Below, in pieces: positions 5,633 to 18,509 of a stretch of DNA of 64,000 nt (positions are counted from its first letter, which is position 1; each line of letters opens with the position of its first letter). The notes under the pieces were generated by a model that had not been told where the DNA came from, did not search any database, and worked only from the letters and a program-made list of their open reading frames with translations. Source of the stretch: Mycobacterium sp. (GTDB lineage Bacteria; Actinomycetota; Actinomycetes; Mycobacteriales; Mycobacteriaceae); contig CAXNJA010000003.1 in NCBI GenBank assembly GCA_964202555.1, positions 847-64,846 of the forward strand. Direction: 5' to 3'. A program made the position numbers and the translations under genes.

Positions 5633-6376
5633 ATGGGCGAGCCCACGACGAACGGCGCCGGGGCACTGCGGCCGAAGTACGCGCGGGTACTGCTCAAGCT
5701 CGGCGGGGAGATGTTCGGCGGCGGCTCGGTGGGACTGGACCCCGACGTGGTCGCCCAGGTGGCCCGGCAGATCGCCGAAGTGGTGCGCAGCGGCGTTCAG
5801 GTCGCGGTGGTGATCGGCGGCGGGAACTTCTTCCGCGGCGCTCAACTTCAGCAGCGCGGTATGGAACGCACCCGTTCGGACTACATGGGCATGTTGGGCA
5901 CCGTGATGAACAGCCTCGCGCTGCAGGACTTCCTCGAGCAGGAGGGCATCGTGACCCGGGTTCAGACCGCCATCACCATGGGCCAGGTGGCCGAACCCTA
6001 TATCCCGCTGCGGGCCCGCCGTCACCTGGAAAAGGGCCGGGTGGTCATTTTCGGCGCAGGCATGGGTCTGCCGTACTTCTCCACTGACACCACCGCCGCC
6101 CAGCGAGCCCTCGAGATCGGCGCCGAGGTGGTGCTGATGGCCAAAGCCGTCGACGGGGTGTTCACCGACGACCCCCGGCACAATCCAGAGGCGACGATGC
6201 TGACCGAGATCACCCACCGCGAAGTTCTCGAACGCGAGCTGCGGGTCGCCGACGCGACCGCCTTCAGCCTATGTATGGACAACGGAATGCCGATTCTGGT
6301 TTTCAACCTGCTTACCGATGGCAATATCGCCCGGGCGGTCGCTGGTGAGAAGATCGGAACACTGGTCACCACCTGA
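5633..6376 (+). CDS. pyrH: UMP kinase
   Basis: [12 protein letters not shown] ... [11 protein letters not shown] ... [15 protein letters not shown] motifs of the amino-acid-kinase fold UMP kinase. RBS gaaggag. Followed by frr. Confidence 0.95.
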
Positions 6377-6435
6377 ACGGAGAAGTTCATGACGCCGACG
6401 ATGCAGACTGAAGCGAACCCGCAGGAGCCGCGCCG

Positions 6436-6993
6436 ATGATCGACGAAGCTCTGTTCGACGCCGAGGAGAAGATGGAGAAGGCTGTCGCGGTCGCGCGCGA
6501 CGATCTGTCCTCCATCCGCACCGGGCGTGCCAATCCGGGCATGTTCTCCCGCGTCGTCGTCGACTATTACGGCACCCCGACGCCCATTACGCAGATGTCG
6601 AGCATCAACGTCCCCGAGGCCCGGATGGTGGTGATCAAGCCCTACGAGGCGGCCCAACTGCGGACGATCGAGGATGCCATCCGTAACTCCGACCTGGGGG
6701 TGAACCCGACCAACGACGGCAACATCATCCGGGTGGCGATTCCGCAGCTGACCGAGGAGCGTCGGCGCGATCTGGTCAAGCAGGCCAAGGCCAAGGGTGA
6801 GGACGCCAAGGTGTCGGTGCGCAATATCCGCCGCCGCGCCATGGAGGAGCTGCACCGCATCAAAAAGGACGGCGAGGCCGGCGAGGACGAGGTCGGCCGG
6901 GCCGAGAAGGATCTCGATAAGGCCACCGGGCAGTATGTTCACCAGATCGACGAACTGGTCAAGCACAAGGAAGGGGAACTGCTGGAGGTCTAG
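6436..6993 (+). CDS. frr: Ribosome recycling factor
   Basis: 185 aa. [47 protein letters not shown] is typical RRF. Conserved pyrH-frr-cdsA order. Confidence 0.95.
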
Positions 6994-7013
6994 GACCACA
7001 GCAGAGACCCACC

Positions 7014-7865
7014 ATGGCTGACACGGAAGCCCCACCGGCGAAGACCTCGCGCGCGGGCCGCGACCTGCCCGCCGCCATCGCGGTCAGTCTCCTCCTGGGC
7101 GGCACCGTGATCGCCACCCTGTTGTTCGCCCCGCGCGGGTGGGTGGTCATCTTGTCGCTGGGGATGGCGGTGGCCACCCTTGAGGTTGTCCGGCGACTTC
7201 GCGAGGGCGGCTACTCCATCCCCCTGATCCCACTGCTGGTGGGTGGCCAGGCCATGATCTGGCTGACCTGGCCGTTCGGGGCGGCAGGTGCCCTCGGCGC
7301 GTACGGCGGCACGGTACTGGTCTGTCTGATCTGGCGGTTGCTGAGCCAGGGCTTGCAGAATCAACCGGTCAACTATGTGCGCGACGTCGCCGTCACCATC
7401 TTCCTGGCCACCTGGATTCCGTTGTTCGGCGCCTTTGGTGCGTTGCTGGTCTACCCCGAGGACGGCTGGGCCCGGGTGTTCACCTTCATGCTCGTGGTGG
7501 CGTTCTCCGACATCGGCGGCTACGCCGCCGGGGTGCTGTTCGGCAAGCACCGGATGGTTCCGGCCATCAGCCCGAAGAAGTCCTGGGAGGGACTCGCCGG
7601 TTCGCTGGTGTGCGGCACCACCGCGGCGGTGCTGGCAGTGATGTTCCTCATGCACAAACCGTGGTGGGTGGGGGTGCCGCTGGGCATCCTGCTGGTGATC
7701 ACCGCCACCCTGGGCGATCTGGTGGAGTCACAGTTCAAACGCGATCTGGGCATCAAGGACATGGGTACCCTGCTGCCCGGCCACGGGGGACTGATGGACC
7801 GCATCGACGGTGCACTGCCCTCGGCGGTGGCGACCTGGATCGTGCTCAGCCTGCTGGCCACCTGA
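7014..7865 (+). CDS. cdsA: Phosphatidate cytidylyltransferase (CDP-diglyceride synthase)
   Basis: Multi-TM protein with the C-terminal CTP-transferase signature SQFKRDLGIKDMGTLLPGHGGLMDRIDG. Confidence 0.9.
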   Translation: MADTEAPPAKTSRAGRDLPAAIAVSLLLGGTVIATLLFAPRGWVVILSLGMAVATLEVVRRLREGGYSIPLIPLLVGGQAMIWLTWPFGAAGALGAYGGTVLVCLIWRLLSQGLQNQPVNYVRDVAVTIFLATWIPLFGAFGALLVYPEDGWARVFTFMLVVAFSDIGGYAAGVLFGKHRMVPAISPKKSWEGLAGSLVCGTTAAVLAVMFLMHKPWWVGVPLGILLVITATLGDLVESQFKRDLGIKDMGTLLPGHGGLMDRIDGALPSAVATWIVLSLLAT

Positions 7866-9337: not shown

Positions 9338-10684
9338 TCACCGCAGCAGCCCGTACCGGCGCAGCGCCTCGGTACGTTCGGCGGCGTGGTCCACGATCGG
9401 CTCGGGATAGTCCGCGGGTCGGCCACCTTTGAACCGGTGCGGGTCGGGCGTCTCGGCCAGTTCCGGCACCCACCGGCGCACGTAGTCGCCGGCCGGATCG
9501 AACTTCTCACCCTGCGCGGTCGGGTTGAACACCCGGAAATACGGCGCGGCGTCGGTGCCGGTGCCCGCGGCCCACTGCCAGCCGTGCTGGTTGCTGGCCA
9601 CGTCGGCGTCGACCAGTTGCTCCAGGAACCAGCGGGCCCCCCACTGCCACGGCAGATGAAGGTCCTTGACCAGGAACGATGCCACGATCATCCGTACCCT
9701 GTTGTGCATGAACCCGCTGTCGGACAACTGCCGCATCCCGGCGTCGACGATCGGATAGCCGGTGCGGCCCTGCTTCCAAGCCTCGAACGCGACCCGCGCC
9801 GCCGAGTCGGTGTCCACCTCGATGGCGTCGAACGCCGGGTTCCAGTTGTGCCAGGCGCTGGCCGGCCACTGGTGCAACACCGAGGCGTAGAAATCCCGAA
9901 AGGCCAACTCCCGCACATAGGCGCTCGCCGCGGAATCGCTGAGATCCAGATCAGACACCAGGGTCCGGGGATGGATGGTGCCGAACTTCAGATGCGCCGA
10001 CAGCCGACTGGTTCCCGGCTTATCGGGGCGGTCCCGGTCGGCGGCGTAGCCATGCAAGCCCTCGGCGCGGAATTCCGACCACCGTTGCCGGGCCGCGGCC
10101 TCGCCGGCCGGAACGTCGAGAACCGCTCCCGGATCGGGCGCCTCCACCCGCGCCGGCAAAGCCGCCAGCGTGCCGGGATCGATCCACCCGGTGACGTCCG
10201 GGCCGGACTGAGCGGGGCTGCGCCAGCCCACTTCACGCCAGCGCCGGAAGTACGGGGTGAAGACCTTGTAGGGGCCGCCGTCGTCCTTGGTGACCCGCCC
10301 CGGTGACACCAGGTAGGGCGAACCGGTGGCCACCAACGGGATCTTCCGGGTGGCAAGGCTGTCGCGCACCGCTGCGTCCCGGCGCATCCCGAACGGGCTG
10401 AAGTCCGCCGAGATGTGGACCGCCGTCGCGGCGGCCGCGGCGCAGATCTGCGGGAGGTGTTCTTCCGGGCGGCCGCGGGTGATCAGCAGACGCCCGTCCA
10501 GCGCCGCGTTGAGTTCGCGCAGGCAGTCGCCGAGGAATTGCAGACGGCGGGGTCCGGCGTTGGCCTCCAGACGGGGATCCAGCACGAAGCAGGGCAGCAC
10601 ATCGGCGCTGTCGGAGGCTTCCAGCAGGGGCGGCAGGTCGCGCAGGCGAAGGTCGCGGCGAAACCACAGAACGGTGGAGGGCAC
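9338..10684 (-). CDS. phr: Deoxyribodipyrimidine photolyase / cryptochrome family
   Basis: N-terminus VLWFRRDLRLRDLPPLL and the FAD-binding C-terminal block HNRVRMIVASFLVKDL..WQWAAGTGTDAAPYFRVFNP. GTG start lies 4 nt after the upstream gene's stop. Confidence 0.9.
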   Translation of the reverse strand: MPSTVLWFRRDLRLRDLPPLLEASDSADVLPCFVLDPRLEANAGPRRLQFLGDCLRELNAALDGRLLITRGRPEEHLPQICAAAAATAVHISADFSPFGMRRDAAVRDSLATRKIPLVATGSPYLVSPGRVTKDDGGPYKVFTPYFRRWREVGWRSPAQSGPDVTGWIDPGTLAALPARVEAPDPGAVLDVPAGEAAARQRWSEFRAEGLHGYAADRDRPDKPGTSRLSAHLKFGTIHPRTLVSDLDLSDSAASAYVRELAFRDFYASVLHQWPASAWHNWNPAFDAIEVDTDSAARVAFEAWKQGRTGYPIVDAGMRQLSDSGFMHNRVRMIVASFLVKDLHLPWQWGARWFLEQLVDADVASNQHGWQWAAGTGTDAAPYFRVFNPTAQGEKFDPAGDYVRRWVPELAETPDPHRFKGGRPADYPEPIVDHAAERTEALRRYGLLR

Positions 10685-10688
10685 CTCC

Positions 10689-13208
10689 CTATGCTGCCGG
10701 GTGCCGGAGTCTGGTCAGTCGCGGGGCGGCGGTGTCACCGGGCCTGGTTATCTCCAGTCCGCTGATGTGTCGGCGCACGGCGGTGATCGCCCACGCCAGG
10801 AAAGACCCCACCAGCAGCGAGACGACCACTCCCGGCAGCGGATGGCCAAACAGCGGATAGACCTGGAAATGGGTGAGATAGGTGTATAGCGAGCCTTCGG
10901 CGATGATGCCGGCGGCGGCGGCCACCCGCGCGGGGCAACGCAGCGCGGGCAGCCAGATCAACAGCAACAGGCCGACGCCGACGATCACCTCACGCTGGCC
11001 GCTGCCGAAGTACCCGTGCAGGGCGATCAGCGCGGCGCCGGACAGCACCGCCCGCCGCCAAAGGGTGTCGGCCTTGGCTGCGGCCCAGCCCACGGCGAAG
11101 AACCAGAACGCCAGCAGTGTGAACCATGCCTGCCGTCCCAACTCCAGGCCCAGCGCGTCGTAACGCAACGCCAGACCCGCCGCCAGCACTGCCATCGCCG
11201 AAGCGAACGGCCATCGTCGTTCCAGCCGATCCACGGCGGGAATCCAGACCACCGCGGCCAGCGCCACCAGCGTCCACACCAGTGCCTCGATGAACCACAG
11301 TCGCCCGGCGGTCATGCTGTCGTGAGGGCCGAGAAGTTTCTGCAGCAGAACCAGATTGGTGGCTGCATAGTCATCGGAGAAGGTCATCACCGCCGCGATC
11401 CAGAGCACCGACGGAACCGCGATCCACCCAACGGTCTTGACGATCCGGTCGACCCGCTCCCGGCGCGGACCGCGGCCCAGGCAGAACTGCGCGAAATTGA
11501 AGCCGGCCACCGCCAGCAGGATGTGCGCCCCGCCCCACAGCGTGAACAACCCCGCGTGGGAGCCGACGATCAGCACGATCGCCATAGCGCGCAACGCCAC
11601 CCCGGTATCCAGCCGGACGCCCCAGCGCCGGGTGGTCGGGTTGCTGTTGCGGCGGGTCGCCTCCAACTCGCCGACGGTCCGCGATGACCAGTGCGGGGGC
11701 AGATCGCCGAGCAGCCGCTCCAGGCGTACCGACGTCGTCACATAGGACAGCGACGTTCCGCCCAGATCCACGAAACTACGGTCGGTGCGAACCGTGGCAG
11801 GGTCGATCTGCAACACGTCGGCGAACAGTTCGCGAACCCCGGCCGGGGCCTGGGCGTCGGCGGGCCGACTGATCTGTCGTAGCCGCGCATAGTCCGGCTT
11901 GCCGGCCGCCAGGACGGGCAGTTCCGGCAGGCACACCGCGCGCACCGCGTCGACCGGTAGGCCTGCCGCGGTCGCGGCGCGCCGCCTCAACGCGCCCGGG
12001 TCCGCGGCCCGGCCCGCCGTTGCGACCAGCAACCGCCCTTCTGATTCGGTGCACATGGCCACCGCACCCGGCGTGGTGACCGCCGCCTCAATCCGTTGCA
12101 GGTCGATGCGCAGCCCGTAAAGCTTGACGAACCTGCTCAGCCGTCCGACGACCTGGTAGATCCCACCGCCCAGATCGCGCGCGACGTCGCCGGTGCGCAA
12201 CGCTGCCAACGTGCTGCCGGCGGCCAGGTCCGCCTTGGACTCGGCGTAGCCCATCATGACGTTGGGCCCCCGGTAGACCAGTTCGCCGACGTCCGGTTCG
12301 GCCCAACCGTCCACCGGGGCAAGCTCAAAAGAGCCGCCGGGAATGGCGCGGCCGATCGCCTCGGGATGTTCCAGCGCCGTCGCCGGCGGCAGGTAGGCCA
12401 TCCGGGCGGTGGCCTCGGTAGCGCCGTACATGACCACGAAGTCGAACCCCCGGCGTCTGCCCAGACGGACATAACGGCGAACCGCCTCGGGGTTCAGCCG
12501 GCCGCCGGCCTGGGTGACGTAACGCAGACTGGGCAGATCCATATCGGCGAATCCGGCCCGGTCCAACATGTCAAACGTGTACGGCACGCCGGCGAAACTC
12601 GTTGCGCCGTAACGCTTGAATAGATCCCAAAAACCCGGTTCGAGTACTGACCTATCGGTCAGGATCACTCCGGCCCCGGCCCAGAGGTGACTGTGGATCA
12701 CCGAGGCGCCGTAGCAGTACGACAGCGGCAGTGTCGTCGCCGCCCGGTCGCTGTCGGTGATCCCGAGATACTGCACGATCGCCTCGGTGTTGGAACGCAG
12801 GTTTGCCGCCGACAGCCGGACCGCCTTGGGTGAGCCGGTGCTTCCGGACGTGCTGGCCAGCAGGGTCAGATCGGGGTGCAACCGGTGCGCGGTCCGCCGC
12901 CGGCGGTGATCGACGCGACCGGTGGGGTCGATGACCACGTCGGGCTCGTAAACGGCGGCCAGTGCGGTGAAGTCCCGGCCGCGCGGCACCGGCATGACGA
13001 CGTGGCCGGCGGCCAGAGCGCCGAGATAGGACTCCAGGGCCGGCAGGGTGTTCGCCGTTTCGATGAGCACCAGTTTGCGGGCCGGGCCCAGGCGTTCGGC
13101 GACACCCGCCATGCGATCGGCCAGCGCGCTGTAGGTCAGCGTCTGATTCTCCGTCGCGACCGCGAGTCGGTCGGAGAAGCCGGCGATCCGATCGAGAAGG
13201 TCATCCAC
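10689..13208 (-). CDS. Tri-domain protein: adenylation (AMP-ligase) + carrier (PCP/ACP) + acyltransferase-3 (AT3) integral membrane domain
   Basis: Adenylation cores: LLASTSGSTGSPKAV (A3), MYGATEAT (A5), GELVYRGPNVMMGY (A6), LRTGDVARD (A7), GRLSRFVKLYGLRIDLQRIE (A8), AAGKPDY (A10). Carrier motif FVDLGGTSLSY. This is followed by about 330 aa of hydrophobic helices that open with LRAMAIVLIVGSH (the R..H pair typical of AT3 TM1). The GTG start overlaps the upstream ATPase stop by 8 nt. Confidence 0.8.
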   Translation of the reverse strand: MDDLLDRIAGFSDRLAVATENQTLTYSALADRMAGVAERLGPARKLVLIETANTLPALESYLGALAAGHVVMPVPRGRDFTALAAVYEPDVVIDPTGRVDHRRRRTAHRLHPDLTLLASTSGSTGSPKAVRLSAANLRSNTEAIVQYLGITDSDRAATTLPLSYCYGASVIHSHLWAGAGVILTDRSVLEPGFWDLFKRYGATSFAGVPYTFDMLDRAGFADMDLPSLRYVTQAGGRLNPEAVRRYVRLGRRRGFDFVVMYGATEATARMAYLPPATALEHPEAIGRAIPGGSFELAPVDGWAEPDVGELVYRGPNVMMGYAESKADLAAGSTLAALRTGDVARDLGGGIYQVVGRLSRFVKLYGLRIDLQRIEAAVTTPGAVAMCTESEGRLLVATAGRAADPGALRRRAATAAGLPVDAVRAVCLPELPVLAAGKPDYARLRQISRPADAQAPAGVRELFADVLQIDPATVRTDRSFVDLGGTSLSYVTTSVRLERLLGDLPPHWSSRTVGELEATRRNSNPTTRRWGVRLDTGVALRAMAIVLIVGSHAGLFTLWGGAHILLAVAGFNFAQFCLGRGPRRERVDRIVKTVGWIAVPSVLWIAAVMTFSDDYAATNLVLLQKLLGPHDSMTAGRLWFIEALVWTLVALAAVVWIPAVDRLERRWPFASAMAVLAAGLALRYDALGLELGRQAWFTLLAFWFFAVGWAAAKADTLWRRAVLSGAALIALHGYFGSGQREVIVGVGLLLLIWLPALRCPARVAAAAGIIAEGSLYTYLTHFQVYPLFGHPLPGVVVSLLVGSFLAWAITAVRRHISGLEITRPGDTAAPRLTRLRHPAA

Positions 13209-14325
13209 GGCGGCTCCCGAAAACCACCCCTTCGCCGAGGACGTCGACTCGTACCTTGTCCTCGGTCCGCGGAGCGTCGACGCTGTTCTGGCGGGATGTC
13301 AACAAAGCCGTGCCGGGTCCGATGTCTATGGTCAACACGACCTCTCCGCCGAGGAATTCGGAGGCGACCACCACGCCGGTCCCATCACCGCGGTCGCGGA
13401 GGCCGGTCCCATCACCGCGGTCGCGGTCACCGGTCCCATCACCGCGGTCGCGGTCAGAGACCGCAGTGGCGCGCAACTGCTCTGGGCGCAGCATCAACTC
13501 GCCGGGCCCGTCGGCGGCACCTGGCGCGGGCACCGGGCCAAGCACGCATTCGGCGACACCGTCGAGGACCGAGCACGGCAGGAAGACACAGTCTCCGAGG
13601 AACTCCGCGGTCGCCCGGTCGCACGGCCTCAGGTACACCTCCCGCGGTGACCCCAACTGGGTGAAACGCCCATCGAGCATGACCGCCACCTGATCGGCGA
13701 TCGACAACGCCTCCTGTTGGTCGTGGGTGACCAGCAGCGTGGCGACCGCGGCCTGCCGCAGTGTCTGCGCCACGGAGTTGCGGGTGGTGGCGCGCAGTCG
13801 GGCATCCAGTGCGCTGAACGGCTCGTCGAGCAACATCAGAGCCGGTTTGCGCGCCAACGCGCGGGCCAAGGCGACCCGTTGCTGCTGCCCGCCGGACAAC
13901 TCGTCGGGGCGCCGCTGCGCCAGCGTCGGATCCAACGAAACGGTTGCAAGCAGTTGCTCCACACGTTCCCGGACGGCTCTGACCCGCAAGCTGCCCAGCC
14001 CGTAGGCGATGTTCTCACCGACGCTCAGATGGGGGAACAGTGCGCCGTCCTGGGTGACGTAGCCGACCGCCCGCTTGTGCGGTGGCACTGAGCGTCCAGC
14101 GCCGGCCACGATTGACCCGCCGATCGCCACTGTGCCGGAATCCGGTTCCTCGAACCCCGCGATGATCCGCAGCAGAGTGGTCTTTCCGCAGCCGGATGGA
14201 CCCACCACCGCAGTGGTGCCGCCGTTGGCGATGTCCAGGTCAAGTCCGCCGATCACCGGGGTCGTGCCGAATGACTTTGCCAGTGAACGGATTTCAAGAG
14301 TGGATGTCGATGCAGATGTTGTCAT
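13201..14325 (-). CDS. ABC transporter ATP-binding protein (FbpC/PotA-like, iron(III)-type importer)
   Basis: Walker A GPSGCGKTT, signature LSGGQQQRVALARAL, Walker B LMLLDEPFSALD. The C-terminal regulatory (TOBE-like) domain is interrupted by a DRDRGDGTG x3 repeat. ATGA overlap with the permease gene. Confidence 0.9.
   Translation of the reverse strand: MTTSASTSTLEIRSLAKSFGTTPVIGGLDLDIANGGTTAVVGPSGCGKTTLLRIIAGFEEPDSGTVAIGGSIVAGAGRSVPPHKRAVGYVTQDGALFPHLSVGENIAYGLGSLRVRAVRERVEQLLATVSLDPTLAQRRPDELSGGQQQRVALARALARKPALMLLDEPFSALDARLRATTRNSVAQTLRQAAVATLLVTHDQQEALSIADQVAVMLDGRFTQLGSPREVYLRPCDRATAEFLGDCVFLPCSVLDGVAECVLGPVPAPGAADGPGELMLRPEQLRATAVSDRDRGDGTGDRDRGDGTGLRDRGDGTGVVVASEFLGGEVVLTIDIGPGTALLTSRQNSVDAPRTEDKVRVDVLGEGVVFGSRRG
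13378..13458. repeat. 27-bp in-frame tandem repeat x3 inside the ABC ATPase gene
   Basis: The unit ggtcccatcaccgcggtcgcgg plus 5 variable nt is read three times (13378, 13405, 13432). It encodes (D/L)RDRGDGTG x3 on the minus strand. Confidence 0.9.
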
Positions 14326-15827
14326 GGCGCGGTCACCGCCCTAGTTGCCTGCCGAAACAGCAGCATCGTCACCGGCAGCGTCAGCACGACCATGATCGCG
14401 GCGTAGGGAGCGGCGGCGGCGTAGTCCAGTTCACTGGCCAGCGACCAGAACCGCATGGACAGGGTCCGGGTGCCGGTCGGTGCGAGCAGCAGTGTGGCGG
14501 TGAGTTCGGTTGCCACCGCGACGAATACCAGCGCCGCACCGGCCGCCGCGGCCGGCGCGGTGAGTCGCAGTGTCACGCGGGTGAACGTCGCGGCCGGCGA
14601 GACCCCCAGCGATTGAGATGCGTCCTGGAGGCCGGTCGGTACCTGGGCGAGACCGCTCCGCACGTTGACCATTGCTCGGGGGATGAACATCAGCACGTAG
14701 GCGCAGAGCAGCAGTGCCACGGTCTGATAGAGCGGGGGAGTGGCTCTCACGGCCACGTTGACCAGTGCCAGGGCTGTGACGATCCCCGGCAGTGAACTGG
14801 TCACGAAGTGTGCGCCCTCGATCAGCCGCCCGTCCCAGCGCTGGTTGCGTATCGTCACCCAGGCGACCGGGTACGCCAGCGCGGTGGCGGCCAAGGCGCC
14901 GAGAGCGGCCAGACCGGCGGTCTGAGCCAGCGCCATGCCGAGCTCGTCGGGCAGCCAGACGCCGGGGCCGCCGATCCACAGCCAACGCAGGAGCGTCCCA
15001 ACCGGTACGCCGATCGCCAAGGCCGACAACACAATCAGCGCGATCAGGGCTGGAATGCGGGCCCGGCCGAGCCGAATCGGAGTCTGCGGGCGCGGCGCCC
15101 CGGAGCCGATCCGGGCGAACCGGTTGCGACCTCGCGCGGCCACCTCGGCCAGCAACATCAGCAGGCACAACACCACCAGAACACCGGCGAGCATGGAACC
15201 GGCCGCGCCGTCGAAGGTGGATTGGAACTGTTCGACGATGGCGGTGGTGAACGTGTTGAACCGCAGCATGGCGAAGGCGCCGTATTCGGCTAGCAGGTGC
15301 ACACCGATCAGCAATGCCCCGCCGAGGATGGCCAGCCGTAGTTGCGGCAGCACCACCCGGGCGAACACCGCTGCCGGGGCCGAACCCAGGCTGCGCGCCG
15401 ACTCCTCCAGGGCGGGGTCGAGTCTGCGCAGTGCCGCCACCGCCGGCAGGAAGACGAACGGGAAATACGACAGCGTCGTCACCAGCACCGCGGCGCCGAA
15501 TCCGTGCAGCGACGGTGCAACCCCTATCCAGGCGTAGGAATTGACGAAGGCCGGAACGGCCAATGGCGCCACCAGCAACGGCCGCCACCATCCCCGCCCG
15601 GGTACATCGGTGCGTTCGACCAGCCAGGCCGCCGCCACGCCGGTCACGACGCAGGCCGGCACCGTCACCAGCACCACACCCACGGTGTTGAGCAGCAGTT
15701 CGGCCACCCGCGGCCGAAACAGCAGCGCGGCCGCCCGGGTGGGCCCGGTGTGAATGAACGACCACGTCACGAATCCGAGTGGAATCAGCGAGGCGGTGGC
15801 CAGCAACGCGGCGGTGCCGAGGACCAC
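14322..15827 (-). CDS. ABC importer permease, fused two-domain (FbpB/AfuB-like)
   Basis: 501 aa of hydrophobic sequence, about 12 TM helices, made of two similar halves as in iron(III) ABC permeases. It sits between the SBP and ATPase genes. Confidence 0.8.
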   Translation of the reverse strand: MVLGTAALLATASLIPLGFVTWSFIHTGPTRAAALLFRPRVAELLLNTVGVVLVTVPACVVTGVAAAWLVERTDVPGRGWWRPLLVAPLAVPAFVNSYAWIGVAPSLHGFGAAVLVTTLSYFPFVFLPAVAALRRLDPALEESARSLGSAPAAVFARVVLPQLRLAILGGALLIGVHLLAEYGAFAMLRFNTFTTAIVEQFQSTFDGAAGSMLAGVLVVLCLLMLLAEVAARGRNRFARIGSGAPRPQTPIRLGRARIPALIALIVLSALAIGVPVGTLLRWLWIGGPGVWLPDELGMALAQTAGLAALGALAATALAYPVAWVTIRNQRWDGRLIEGAHFVTSSLPGIVTALALVNVAVRATPPLYQTVALLLCAYVLMFIPRAMVNVRSGLAQVPTGLQDASQSLGVSPAATFTRVTLRLTAPAAAAGAALVFVAVATELTATLLLAPTGTRTLSMRFWSLASELDYAAAAPYAAIMVVLTLPVTMLLFRQATRAVTAP

Positions 15828-15877: not shown

Positions 15878-16894
15878 TCAGAGCAGGCCCGCCCCGGTCA
15901 TCAGTTCGGTCACCGCGGCGGCGTCGAGTGCGCTGGGGTTGACCTTTGGCGCTTGCAGTTGGTCCAGCGGAACCAGGGCGCTGTTGGCCGGCACCCCACT
16001 GGCGACCGGATACTCGAAGGAGGTTCCGTTCTGCAGAACTTCCTGTCCCCGCTTTCCGGTGATGAAGCCGATGAACTGTTGGGCTTTCTCGGATTTCTTG
16101 CTTGACTTCAGCACGCCACCACCGGAGAGGCTGACGAACGCCCCCGGATCAAAGTTCTTGAAGTAGTGCAGCTTGGTGTTGCCGCTCATCTCCTTGGTCT
16201 TGGCCTGATCGCGGTACCAGTAGTAGTGATAGATCACGCCTCCGTCGACTTCGCCGCCGTTGACCGCACGCAGGGTGGCGATGTTGTCTTTGTAGGCGAC
16301 CGCGTCGGCTTTCATGGCGGTCAGCCACTGCTCGGTCGCGGCCGTGCCGCGCAGTTCCAGCAGCGCGGCCACGATGGCCTGGAAATCCGCTTTGGCCGGG
16401 GGTGCCCCCCAGCGGCCACGCCACTGCGGATTCTGCAGATCGAGCAACGATTTCGGCAGTTGATCTGCACTCAGCTTGGCGGGGTTGTAGACGAACACAG
16501 TGCTGCGGGCAGCCACCCCGACCCAGGAGTTGCTCTCCGGCCGATACTGCTCGGGCACCTGGGCCAGCGTCTGGGAGTCGATCGGCGCCAGTAATCCCGC
16601 CCGCTCGACCGCGGCGATTGCCGGAGAGTTCTCAGTCAGGAAGACATCAGCCGGTGACTCCGGGCCCTCGGCGATGATCTGATTGCCGAGTTCGCTGTCT
16701 CCGCCCTGCCGGTAGACCACCTTGATGCCGGTCTCCTGGGTGAACTCCTCGATCCACTCCTTGGTCAGTGACTCATGCTGAGCGTTGTAGATCAGCAGTT
16801 CCTCCGGCGGAGTGCCCGAACACCCGACGGCCGCGGCGGCCGCACTCATGGCGACGACTACGACCAGCGCCCGGCGCAGGAGACCAACTCGCAT
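15878..16894 (-). CDS. Periplasmic-type solute-binding lipoprotein, iron(III)-binding family (FbpA/AfuA-like)
   Basis: Signal peptide plus lipobox (MSAAAAAVGC). The mature sequence resembles family-1 SBPs of ferric transporters (YNAQHESLT...ENSPAI...YYWYR). RBS gaaaggg. Confidence 0.75.
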   Translation of the reverse strand: MRVGLLRRALVVVVAMSAAAAAVGCSGTPPEELLIYNAQHESLTKEWIEEFTQETGIKVVYRQGGDSELGNQIIAEGPESPADVFLTENSPAIAAVERAGLLAPIDSQTLAQVPEQYRPESNSWVGVAARSTVFVYNPAKLSADQLPKSLLDLQNPQWRGRWGAPPAKADFQAIVAALLELRGTAATEQWLTAMKADAVAYKDNIATLRAVNGGEVDGGVIYHYYWYRDQAKTKEMSGNTKLHYFKNFDPGAFVSLSGGGVLKSSKKSEKAQQFIGFITGKRGQEVLQNGTSFEYPVASGVPANSALVPLDQLQAPKVNPSALDAAAVTELMTGAGLL

Positions 16895-16934: not shown

Positions 16935-16953
16935 TGAGGATTGCCTAACCATA
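16935..16953. promoter_or_regulatory. Candidate IdeR iron box
   Basis: TGAGGATTGCCTAACCATA and its complement match the palindromic IdeR consensus TTAGGTTAGGCTAACCTAA at 13-14 of 19 positions (hand alignment). It lies 41-59 nt upstream of the SBP start codon. Confidence 0.4.
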
Positions 16954-17049
16954 CACCCGGGGTCCTTCCGAAAGGAAAGGGCCGGTCGCGGCGGCGTGAA
17001 GGAGAAGCACGCCACCGCGGCCGGCCCAGGTAGTGCCGCGCCTCGCGAC

Positions 17050-17649
17050 TTAGCTGGGAGGCAGCAGCACCGAGTCGATCAGGTAGATCGTGGCATTGGT
17101 GGCCTTGATGCCACCGCACACGACGTTGGCGTTGTTGACCATCAGGTGGTCACCGCTGCCGGTCACCGTCAGCTCGGCACCGTTGACGGTCTTGTGGGTG
17201 CCCACGACCTGGTCCGGGCCGGCCTGACCGGGAACGACGTGGTAGGTCAGGATCGACGTCAGCAGAGCGGAGTCGGTCTTGAGCTTGTCGAGGGTGGCTG
17301 CGTCGATCTTGGCGAACGCGTCATTGGTCGGGGCGAAGACGGTGAACTCCCCACCGTTGAGGGTGCTGACCAGATTCACCCCCGGATTCAGCCCACCGGA
17401 CAGCGCCGCGGCCAGGGTGGTCAGCACCGGGCTGTTGGCGGCGGCAGTCGCCACCGGAACCTTGGCCAGCTCGCCGACTGAGCCGGGACCCATCGGGACC
17501 TGCTGGGCGTAGCCGGCGCAGCCGGGTCCAACCAGGTGCAGATCGGCCGAGGCGACCGGGGCCATGATCAGTGCGAAGCTCGCTGCGGATGCTGCTGCCG
17601 CGACGGCAGCTTTCTTGATGTTCTTCATTGATGTCCTTTCGATTGACAC
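17050..17649 (-). CDS. mpt70: Secreted fasciclin (FAS1) domain protein, MPT70-like
   Basis: Signal peptide ending VASA. FAS1 blocks VLTTLAAALSG..FTVFAPTNDAFAKIDAATLDKLKTD..LTYHVVPG..NATIYLIDSVLLPP. Confidence 0.85.
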   Translation of the reverse strand: MSIERTSMKNIKKAAVAAAASAASFALIMAPVASADLHLVGPGCAGYAQQVPMGPGSVGELAKVPVATAAANSPVLTTLAAALSGGLNPGVNLVSTLNGGEFTVFAPTNDAFAKIDAATLDKLKTDSALLTSILTYHVVPGQAGPDQVVGTHKTVNGAELTVTGSGDHLMVNNANVVCGGIKATNATIYLIDSVLLPPS

Positions 17650-17744: not shown

Positions 17745-18509
17745 CTACGGGGTCGTAGTCGTCGTCGGCGCGCTGGTGGTGGCCGCTGCCGGTGCCGCGG
17801 GCGGCATCAGCACTGTGTCGATGAGATACAGGGTGGCGTTGGCCGTCTTGATACCGCCGCAGACCACGCCGGCGTCGTTGACCTTGATGGCGTCGCCGGA
17901 ACCGGTGACCGTCAGCGACTCACCCTGAACCGTGGTGTGGTCCCCGATGACCGCTTTCGCGTCAGCGCCCGGTCCGGAGACCACGTGGTAGGTCAACACC
18001 GAGGTCAACAGGTCCGAGTCGGTCTTCAGCTTCTCGATGGTGGCCGGGTCGACCTTGGCGAAGGCCTCATCGGTCGGGGCGAACACGGTGAACTCGCCGT
18101 TGTTGAGCGTGTCGACCAGGTTCACGTTGGGGTTGAGCTTGCCCGACAGTGCGCCGGCCAGGGTGGTCAGCACCGGGCTGTTGCCGGCAGCGGTCGCGAC
18201 CGGGTCCTTGGCCAGGCCCGCCACCGAACCCGGGCCGGTGGGCACCTGCTCGGCGTAGCCCGCGCAGCCCGCACCGACGAGTCCGGCGGGCGCCGCTGCC
18301 GCTGACGACATGGCCGAGGTGGCCGACGTCATTGCCGACGACGCCGCCGAGCCTGCTGACGAGGCCGCCGAAGTAGCCGCCGAGCCCGCCGACGAGGCCG
18401 CCGAAGTAGCCGAATCGACTGCTTCCTTGGTCGTCGAGCACGCCGACAGGGTGAGTGCGGTGGCGGCAGCCAGACCTGCAGCAACGAGCACGGAACGATT
18501 GATGGTCAT
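17745..18509 (-). CDS. mpt83: Fasciclin-domain lipoprotein, MPT83-like, with Ser/Ala-rich linker
   Basis: Lipobox LTLSAC, then a roughly 45-aa S/A/T linker ([37 protein letters not shown]), then a FAS1 domain paralogous to the neighbouring gene. Confidence 0.85.

Follow-up and report, generated by a model that had tools for sequence, protein, structure and literature searches.

In the DltABCD system of Firmicutes, an ATP-dependent adenylation enzyme loads a phosphopantetheinyl carrier protein, from which the acyl group is handed to an extracytoplasmic acceptor by a polytopic membrane acyltransferase that has a catalytic histidine. Here we describe a gene of Mycobacterium sp. whose 839-aa product appears to hold a comparable series of activities in one chain: an adenylation (A) domain, a carrier domain and a membrane domain of the acyltransferase-3 (AT3) family. 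The gene, hereafter the fusion gene, lies in a 64,000-nucleotide stretch of contig CAXNJA010000003.1 (positions 847 to 64,846; the window), and an earlier, sequence-only reading of the window had described its product as the Dlt system compressed into a single protein. That resemblance stands as one of logic and not of homology, because DltB is an MBOAT protein, unrelated in fold to AT3 (PMC9558356). Dlt moreover consists of four separate proteins and handles an amino acid, whereas the fusion protein lacks the aspartate that binds an alpha-amino group, and its gene is associated with iron boxes and with a ferric-iron importer. No DltD-like gene was present in the conserved neighbourhood of the related loci described below.

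Characterized AT3 O-acyltransferases include OafA/OafB, OatA (an AT3-SGNH protein) and the stand-alone, succinyl-transferring OpgC/MdoC, ExoH and IcaC. With these the fusion protein shares the PF01757 domain, ten predicted transmembrane (TM) helices, the R-X10-H and RXXR motifs and a tyrosine in the loop between helices 5 and 6. As with the known enzymes, an extracytoplasmic acceptor would be expected, and a dicarboxylate donor would recall the succinyl-transferring members. The known enzymes differ in that their donor is an acyl-coenzyme A (acyl-CoA), none carries a fused adenylation or carrier domain and none has been reported to be iron-regulated; the AT3 fusions described so far involve SGNH and alanine racemase domains (PMC9558356). 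A search of the full-text literature retrieved no description of an adenylation-carrier-AT3 protein or of an iron-regulated AT3 enzyme, in agreement with the earlier remark that no characterized mycobacterial example was known to its author. The AT3 family is well known at the level of sequence; what appears to be new here is the supply of an AT3 donor by a carrier in cis, together with the iron context.

Partial parallels exist in other enzymes. Escherichia coli Aas (2-acyl-glycerophosphoethanolamine acyltransferase/acyl-acyl carrier protein synthetase) also combines an ANL domain and an acyltransferase in one inner-membrane chain, and NCBIfam Aas models match aa 109-450 of the fusion protein (3.2e-27). 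However, the Aas acyltransferase is of the PlsC type and faces the cytoplasm, its acyl carrier protein (ACP) acts in trans, and the enzyme uses long-chain fatty acids in lipid repair rather than serving iron uptake. In Vibrio cholerae, a DltA-like ligase, a carrier and a membrane acyltransferase, together AlmEFG, add glycine to lipid A; unlike the fusion, these are three separate proteins, with an LpxL-like AlmG, an amino-acid substrate and no iron regulation. Epsilon-poly-L-lysine synthetase Pls joins an adenylation-carrier module to a membrane catalytic region and releases its product outside the cell. The same holds for the delta-poly-L-ornithine synthetase PosA (PMC10522769), but in both enzymes six TM helices are interleaved with soluble domains resembling condensation domains, AT3 is absent, and a cationic amino acid is built into a polymer.

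Directly upstream, the fusion gene is preceded by three genes of the SfuABC/YfuABC/FbpABC family of ferric-iron importers. We know of no fourth, acyl-transferring cistron in the enterobacterial Sfu and Yfu systems, although no search aimed at one was made; the importer in the window differs in preceding an A-carrier-AT3 gene and in having an IdeR/DtxR-type box upstream. Taking the architecture and this context together, we favor, with a probability of roughly 0.55, the reading that the fusion protein is an iron-starvation-induced, carrier-dependent AT3 enzyme whose acylation of an extracytoplasmic acceptor assists the uptake of ferric iron.

Domain architecture of the fusion protein and its family

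The interval previously assigned to the gene (10689-13208) proved exact, and its strand can now be added: an uninterrupted frame of 839 codons runs on the minus strand from a GTG start (13208-13206) to a TAG stop (10691-10689), while the plus strand of the interval is rich in stops. All of the motifs that had been quoted are present in the translation (TSGSTGSPK, YGATE, GELVYRG..GY, RTGD, GRLSRFVKLYGLRI, GKPDY, DLGGTSLS and LRAMAIVLIVGSH). The expectation that one protein would match PF00501, PF00550 and PF01757 was borne out, with all three above their gathering scores: AMP-binding reached 142.9 bits against a cut-off of 29.9, PP-binding 32.8 bits against 20.8 (aa 458-516), and Acyl_transf_3 38.1 bits against 31 (1.2e-9; aa 538-804, profile positions 6-316 of 326). 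The last match also disposes of the earlier concern that the C-terminal 330 aa might give no AT3 hit. Judged from their conservation, all three domains are intact and evidently under purifying selection.

In a scan of GTDB with one genome per species, at least 523 species genomes were found to encode a relative. From these we retrieved 80 related loci, 1.32 Mb in all, spanning Mycobacteriaceae, Nocardia, Antrihabitans, Nocardioides, Aeromicrobium, Marmoricola, Cryobacterium, Agromyces, Arthrobacter, Microbacteriaceae and a metagenome-assembled genome (MAG) of Acidimicrobiales. An open reading frame (ORF) of more than 780 aa belonging to the same family was present in 75 of the 80 loci, which come from independent assemblies and include contigs of several Mb. 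The taxonomic profile proposed earlier for this architecture is thereby available: the family is uncharacterized and widespread in Actinomycetota. Conservation counts given below were taken over 75 full-length family sequences, with identity down to 43% overall. Among the best 120 database matches, all but one partial entry of 624 aa are proteins of 812-884 aa that are 58-99% identical to the fusion protein and have the same domains. They come from Mycolicibacterium, Mycobacterium and metagenomes, and their names, where present, are generic ('AMP-binding protein', 'AMP-dependent synthetase', 'acyl-CoA synthetase' and the like). The cluster-mates of the window protein in the sequence collection are mostly metagenomic.

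The AT3 part alone, used as a HMMER query, matched 1103 clusters (at 50% identity) with E <=1e-3 and 285 with E <=1e-30. Among the best 150 of these matches, nearly all are either the C-terminal 280-300 residues of proteins of 810-1000 aa or fragments from contigs. By Pfam, ten distant members of the subfamily gave Acyl_transf_3 scores of up to 57.5 bits (1.6e-15); the AMP-binding and Acyl_transf_3 domains occurred together in all seven that are full-length, and PP-binding was also recognized in five. The few short or oddly fused forms that we examined (n=3) came from a frameshift-ridden long-read MAG (locus L081), a fragmented metagenomic contig (L085) and a contig end (L084). On these grounds, this AT3 subfamily seems essentially always to be joined to an adenylation-carrier pair, because its best matches are C-terminal parts of long proteins and its short forms trace to faulty or ended contigs. 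The near-obligatory fusion in turn supports the earlier proposal that the acyl donor would be supplied in cis.

The same data bear on whether the fusion could have been created by a frameshift or an assembly join in the window contig, a hazard that had been raised at the outset. Some short 'PP-binding + AT3' proteins do exist in databases, but the short or oddly fused forms examined trace to poor or ended contigs, and 75 independent loci encode full-length proteins with this architecture; the comparison refutes an artefact. A split system consisting of carrier and AT3 only was considered and rejected, since the entries examined came from frameshifted assemblies or contig ends. A further homologue search with the AT3 part gave mainly fragments of this family, on short contigs. 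One metagenomic ORF (P0341, L085:6001-9366) encodes 1121 aa in the order carrier, AT3 and PhoD-like phosphatase, and a truncated AMP-binding ORF stands apart from it on the upstream side; this AT3-PhoD fusion is probably a read-through artefact of a contig with many fragmented genes.

The carrier domain is identified by its PF00550 score and by a serine within the GGxS motif (LGGTS), which together mark it as a predicted carrier. The phosphopantetheine-accepting residue would be S486 in DLGGTSLS (codon 11751-11753), which is invariant (75/75). In Foldseek searches, the modelled domain matched ACP chains with probabilities of 0.9-1.0, including 2cg5_B at 1.00 (TM-score 0.74).

In characterized AT3 proteins, the signatures are R-X10-H in the first TM helix (R14 and H25 of OafB), RXXR at the cytoplasmic face of the third and a catalytic tyrosine in the outer loop between the fifth and sixth (PMC9833829). 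All have counterparts here. The Arg...His pair that had been recognized earlier as opening the membrane domain is R540-X10-H551 in TM1 (codons 11556-11591), its residues exactly 11 apart and both invariant. The sequence R582-R-E-R585 stands directly ahead of helix 3 (R582 in 67/75, R585 in 74/75), and Y683 directly past helix 5, in loop 5-6, is conserved in 61/75, with mostly aromatic residues in the others. Further near-invariant polar residues are H562, E641, S773 and Y777 (74/75 each) and H780 (73/75). An AlphaFold2 (AF2) model of aa 451-839, which covers carrier and AT3, was obtained with a predicted local distance difference test score (pLDDT) of 90.3 and a predicted template modelling score (pTM) of 0.88. 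The model has ten TM helices, in line with the approximately ten hydrophobic helices noted before; DSSP places the helices at 535-551, 560-576, 582-610, 638-654, 657-682, 696-712, 716-730, 737-755, 760-786 and 790-818. The A-carrier part is predicted to be cytoplasmic, ahead of TM1, and an Arg-rich tail follows TM10. Thus carrier, R540 and RXXR are predicted to lie inside, and H551 and Y683 outside, as in OafB.

By these sequence criteria, the membrane domain is a bona fide AT3 domain. Its membership is based on the Pfam score and the motifs, because other comparisons gave no match at the level of fold. A search of PDB sequences with the AT3 part returned spurious nanobody matches and no AT3 chain. 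When the AT3 alignment of the family was compared by hhalign with one OpgC sequence of E. coli, alignment was confined to the SLYxYLxH region of TM9-10, at a probability of 15%, too low to be of use.

We considered whether the AT3-like domain might be a membrane anchor or substrate channel, with the A-carrier part feeding a separate, unlinked enzyme or trapping an imported acid by vectorial thioesterification. AT3 domains of unassigned role do occur in fusions such as VanT, for whose membrane domain a role of this kind has been proposed, and the structural searches and full-length model discussed below, which gave no match for the membrane domain and a low pTM, would be compatible with such a role. 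Against it, the degree of conservation of the R-X10-H pair, of R582 and R585 and of E641, S773, Y777 and H780 is not expected of a mere anchor, no conserved partner gene accompanies the fusion gene, and the carrier and AT3 domains were modelled confidently as one unit. We regard this explanation as quite unlikely.

The A domain contains the ANL core motifs TSGSTGSPK (A3), YGATE (A5), RTGD, GRLSRFVKLYGLRI (A8) and GKPDY (A10). These cores are invariant in the family alignment, including the A10 lysine K437 (75/75). The closest PDB sequence match of the fusion protein is oxalate-CoA ligase (5ie0, 2.9e-24); other near matches are the A domains LgrA, Thr1 and PltF of nonribosomal peptide synthetases (NRPSs), DltA (3e7w), MenE and MatB. 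Foldseek with the AF2 model gave a probability of 1.00 to stand-alone A domains, MenE, MatB and DltA. The matches of lowest root mean square deviation were structures in the thioester state (PltF-PigG, MenE and DltA), which is a weak hint at most.

To read the substrate pocket, the ten specificity-code positions were mapped by alignment with E. coli EntF and EntE, and the EntF code DVWHFSLVDK fell on the expected columns. The specificity residues, which the earlier reading had suggested extracting, spell CYSATAMARK (C165, Y166, S169, A206, T232, A234, M260, A268, R269 and K437). Eight of these positions are conserved in 75/75 sequences and the remaining two in 73/75 and 69/75. Because the pocket is practically invariant, we infer that the whole family activates one and the same substrate. 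The residue equivalent to Asp235 of NRPSs is the invariant Cys165 by the EntF/EntE mapping, or Gly167 in the LgrA register of HMMER, and is acidic in neither. Furthermore, the NCBIfam amino-acid adenylation model TIGR01733 scored 117.8 bits against a cut-off of 317.4, and the DltA model TIGR01734 scored 56.6 bits (1.7e-15) against 559.85. With the aspartate replaced and both models far below their cut-offs, the pocket suggests that the substrate is not a canonical alpha-amino acid, and a Dlt-like amino acid is unlikely; in this respect the earlier comparison with Dlt did not hold. The characterized ANL enzymes closest to the domain are all distant (oxalate-CoA ligase, MatB, MenE and AmcH, E 1e-15 to 1e-24). 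Our best guess, given an invariant arginine at the pocket floor and the likeness to oxalate, malonate, o-succinylbenzoate and 2-oxoglutarate ligases, would be an anionic di- or tricarboxylic acid or a keto acid.

These results also argue against a true Dlt analogue, in which the protein would aminoacylate a wall or membrane polymer, for example with D-alanine, and tune surface charge, the link to iron being incidental. The order of adenylation, carrier and membrane acyltransferase is identical in logic to DltA-DltC-DltB, and DltA is among the sequence and structure matches. However, besides the pocket and the model scores, iron boxes precede the gene in at least seven genera (see below), and added positive charge would repel Fe(III). 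A Dlt analogue is therefore very improbable.

Operon context and iron boxes

By position, the fusion gene comes fourth in an operon whose first three cistrons encode a ferric-iron ATP-binding cassette (ABC) importer of the sfuABC type (Table 1). The TGA stop of sfuC (13203-13201) overlaps the GTG start of the fusion gene by 8 nt (GTGGATGA). By family matches of the binding protein, permease and ATPase, the three neighbours constitute an importer of the SfuABC/YfuABC type. The SfuA protein of the window is 60% identical to Yersinia YfuA, without gaps over 306 aa, and Serratia SfuA is equally close. Such identity is unusually high for phyla so distant and suggests that the sfuABC cassette has moved between phyla.

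The order sfuA-sfuB-sfuC-fusion gene recurs in approximately 50 of the 80 related loci, including those of Nocardioides, Aeromicrobium and Arthrobacter, and in Agromyces sfuABC adjoins the fusion gene on the opposite strand. Apart from sfuABC, no gene was consistently associated with the fusion gene across the related loci. The neighbours in distant genera (prolyl oligopeptidase, a binding protein, a methyltransferase and others) were examined as candidate partners and set aside, as none is conserved, and the tesB, CoA-transferase, E1 and arginase genes downstream in Mycolicibacterium represent ordinary synteny.

The 19-bp consensus of the IdeR/DtxR iron box is TTAGGTTAGSCTAACCTAA (PMC8464063). 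We defined a strong box as a 19-mer matching the IdeR consensus at 15/19 positions or more, and searched the 1.32 Mb of related loci, in which the 250-nt windows upstream of sfuA and of the fusion gene amount to 2.8% of the sequence. All 60 strong boxes fell within 250 nt upstream of one or the other gene. Forty-eight of these matches lie before sfuA, where the position is occupied in 44 of the 53 sfuA-bearing loci; the sfuA-upstream boxes of related loci match at 14-18/19 and lie at the same position as that of the window. As a background, random 230-nt windows of the 64-kb window scored no higher than 13/19, save those holding the box at 16935-16953.

Boxes also precede the fusion gene itself in 12 loci from at least seven genera, with matches of up to 18/19; these loci include Nocardia, Nocardioides, Aeromicrobium, Cryobacterium, Arthrobacter, Agromyces and Microbacteriaceae. 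Because such boxes are found where sfu genes are missing altogether (L061, L062, L069, L071 and L080), the fusion gene appears to be an iron-box gene in its own right. From this comparative genomics, the boxes conform to the IdeR/DtxR regulon, and IdeR binding and repression by iron would be the expected mode of control. The link to iron, both through the sfuABC operon and through the boxes, is the strongest pointer to function and had escaped the sequence-only reading, whose account of the architecture stands. In the published list of IdeR targets of Saccharopolyspora erythraea, no A-carrier-AT3 gene is present.

Table 1. Positions in the window of the fusion gene, its domains and the neighbouring features, with the evidence for each.
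Feature	Position (nt)	Strand	Evidence
Fusion gene, 839-aa adenylation-carrier-AT3 protein	10689..13208	-	ORF list, translation, three Pfam domains, full-length homologues in 75 related loci
Adenylation (ANL) domain, aa 1-447	11868..13208	-	PF00501 1.5e-41; pocket code CYSATAMARK
Predicted carrier domain (peptidyl or acyl carrier protein type), aa 455-520	11649..11846	-	PF00550 8.5e-8
AT3 membrane acyltransferase domain, aa 531-820, ten predicted TM helices	10749..11618	-	PF01757, motifs, AF2
IdeR/DtxR-type iron box TATGGTTAGGCAATCCTCA	16935..16953	-	15/19 to TWAGGTWAGSCTWACCTWA; 41-59 nt upstream of sfuA start codon
sfuA/yfuA ferric-iron binding protein, lipoprotein-like N-terminus (...AAVGC)	15878..16894	-	PDB 1xvx YfuA 8.9e-125, 1xvy SfuA 1.7e-124
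sfuB-like fused double permease	14322..15827	-	PF00528 BPD_transp_1, two stretches
sfuC/fbpC-like ABC ATPase	13201..14325	-	PF00005 + TOBE_2; NCBIfam ferric ABC ATPase NF008513 9.8e-68; TOBE/FbpC regulatory domain
Deoxyribodipyrimidine photolyase	9338..10684	-	PF03441 + PF00875; starts 4 nt past fusion stop

An Rfam scan of the operon leader gave no riboswitch, and scans for a consensus sigma-70 promoter and for intrinsic terminators gave no match. A sub-threshold Rfam match to the Streptomyces small RNA Scr3202 was seen at 16975-17053 on the minus strand (45.1 bits against a gathering score of 52, E 6e-4). This stretch sits between a fasciclin gene and the iron box and holds a GC-rich inverted repeat, and it may be the terminator hairpin of the fasciclin gene. 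Two tandem genes for fasciclin-domain proteins resembling MPT70/MPT83 (17050-17649 and 17745-18509, both on the minus strand) lie directly upstream of the iron box, and close relatives have one to three such copies (L001-L003, L005, L006 and L009).

In many Mycolicibacterium loci, a gene of the hemophore family (TIGR04529/PF16525 MHB) is divergent from sfuA and shares the same iron-box intergenic region. Examples are L020:3712-4119 and L081:2369-2578, both on the minus strand, with a gene for a DUF1206 membrane protein beyond; neither gene is present in the window.

A photolyase gene downstream of the fusion gene is confined to the closest relatives (L001-L004 and L006), and it is probably co-transcribed with the fusion gene and the iron-box operon in this lineage only. 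Elsewhere in the window, a 337-aa ORF adjoining cdsA (6022-7035, minus strand) has no Pfam or NCBIfam match and is 62-73% identical to proteins in L001, L002, L003 and L006. Between approximately 7000 and 25100, the gene order runs from cdsA and rlmN through the fasciclin genes to dxr, an M50 protease (rip1-like), GNAT and a penicillin-binding protein. This order resembles the Rv2864c-Rv2881c region of Mycobacterium tuberculosis, and relative to that layout the block of sfuABC, fusion gene and photolyase looks like an insertion.

Proposed mechanism and its weight

The steps that we propose derive from sequence and comparative genomics. Iron-loaded IdeR/DtxR would repress transcription through the 19-bp box, so that iron starvation would switch the enzyme on. 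The N-terminal domain, with its invariant ANL cores, would then use ATP to adenylate one carboxylic acid, likely a non-amino, anionic one, and the acyl group would be thioesterified to the phosphopantetheine arm on S486. As the AT3 motifs and topology suggest, the arm could enter the AT3 cavity on its cytoplasmic side, standing in for the pantetheine portion of acyl-CoA. The acyl group would then travel by way of H551, and probably of Y683, and be transferred to an acceptor at the outer surface of the cytoplasmic membrane. Translation of the fusion protein would be coupled to that of the SfuABC importer, and its product would help to capture Fe(III) or deliver it to SfuA, an expectation that follows from the iron-box repression together with the coupling to SfuABC. 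One possible outcome would be that a glycan or lipid of the envelope receives carboxylate esters able to bind metal, which would raise local binding of Fe(III); the stand-alone AT3 enzymes OpgC, ExoH and IcaC would offer an analogy in the succinylation that they perform. In its fullest form, this would amount to a previously unrecognized, siderophore-independent mode of iron capture in Actinomycetota, in which a carrier-fed AT3, under iron starvation, esterifies a polymer or lipid of the envelope with a metal-binding di- or tricarboxylic or keto acid and so creates an Fe(III) trap that feeds SfuABC. We advance this fuller version tentatively and consider it rather doubtful.

The main rival to envelope acylation is the synthesis or export of a small chelator by group translocation. 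Here the AT3 domain would release the tethered acid outside by transferring it to water or to a small soluble acceptor, and the resulting chelator of low molecular weight, or synergistic ligand, would hand Fe(III) to SfuA. The iron-box control and the linkage to a transporter of unchelated Fe(III) fit this possibility, as do the pocket, which suggests an anionic acid, the best PDB match to oxalate-CoA ligase, and the lack of a conserved glycan or lipid biosynthesis gene nearby in the related loci. In addition, antibiotics and Nod factors are among the small molecules that certain AT3 enzymes acylate (PMC9558356). However, the use of ATP and a covalent relay merely to export a common acid has no known precedent, and a hydrolytic AT3 is not known. 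Moreover, proteins of the SfuA/YfuA class bind iron without an exogenous anion, as in the 1xvx and 1xvy structures. Release of a small chelator is, on balance, unlikely.

Several observations weigh against the favored reading of a carrier-dependent enzyme that acylates the envelope. The accepted donor of characterized AT3 enzymes is acyl-CoA, 'rather than … the acyl-carrier protein' (PMC9558356), and the arginine residues thought to bind the 3'-phosphate of CoA are retained in the AT3 domain of the fusion protein. Because of this retention, the domain could conceivably use acyl-CoA. The conserved neighbours of the related loci reveal no partner gene that points to an acceptor. At the structural level, Foldseek searches of PDB and BFVD with the carrier-AT3 model at pLDDT 90 returned ACP matches only and none for the membrane domain, and the full-length AF2 model has a pTM of 0.55, with good local confidence and the placement of the A domain undefined; a low value of this kind is as expected for a mobile A domain. 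The substrate guess hangs on the alignment mapping, and the alternative HMMER register puts a glycine at position 235.

The link to Sfu is also frequent rather than obligatory, because the fusion gene persists where sfuABC is missing in approximately ten loci of Mycolicibacterium (L017, L025, L027, L034-L036, L043, L050, L053 and L056). In these the gene occupies the same chromosomal place, with the DUF1206 gene upstream and tesB and CoA-transferase genes downstream, and the hemophore gene is missing as well. The iron-box-like sequence right before the fusion start is degenerate (approximately 13-15/19) or absent.

If the fuller version, with its Fe(III) trap on the envelope, is correct, the fusion protein would be the first carrier-protein-dependent AT3 enzyme, and it would represent the first iron-regulated envelope acylation. 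With a donor tethered in cis, the AT3 cavity would accept a carrier-bound pantetheine arm, as the MBOAT protein DltB does with DltC, a convergence of two folds that are unrelated. How the acyl group crosses the membrane in AT3 enzymes is still debated, and such a family would lend itself to studies of mechanism, since trapping of the donor on S486 is feasible. Because the substrate pocket is practically invariant, a single experiment would annotate the whole family. For the organisms themselves, the iron boxes and the coupling to the importer draw attention to a part of iron acquisition that is unexplored, namely how Fe(III) reaches an SfuA-type lipoprotein behind a thick wall or a mycomembrane.

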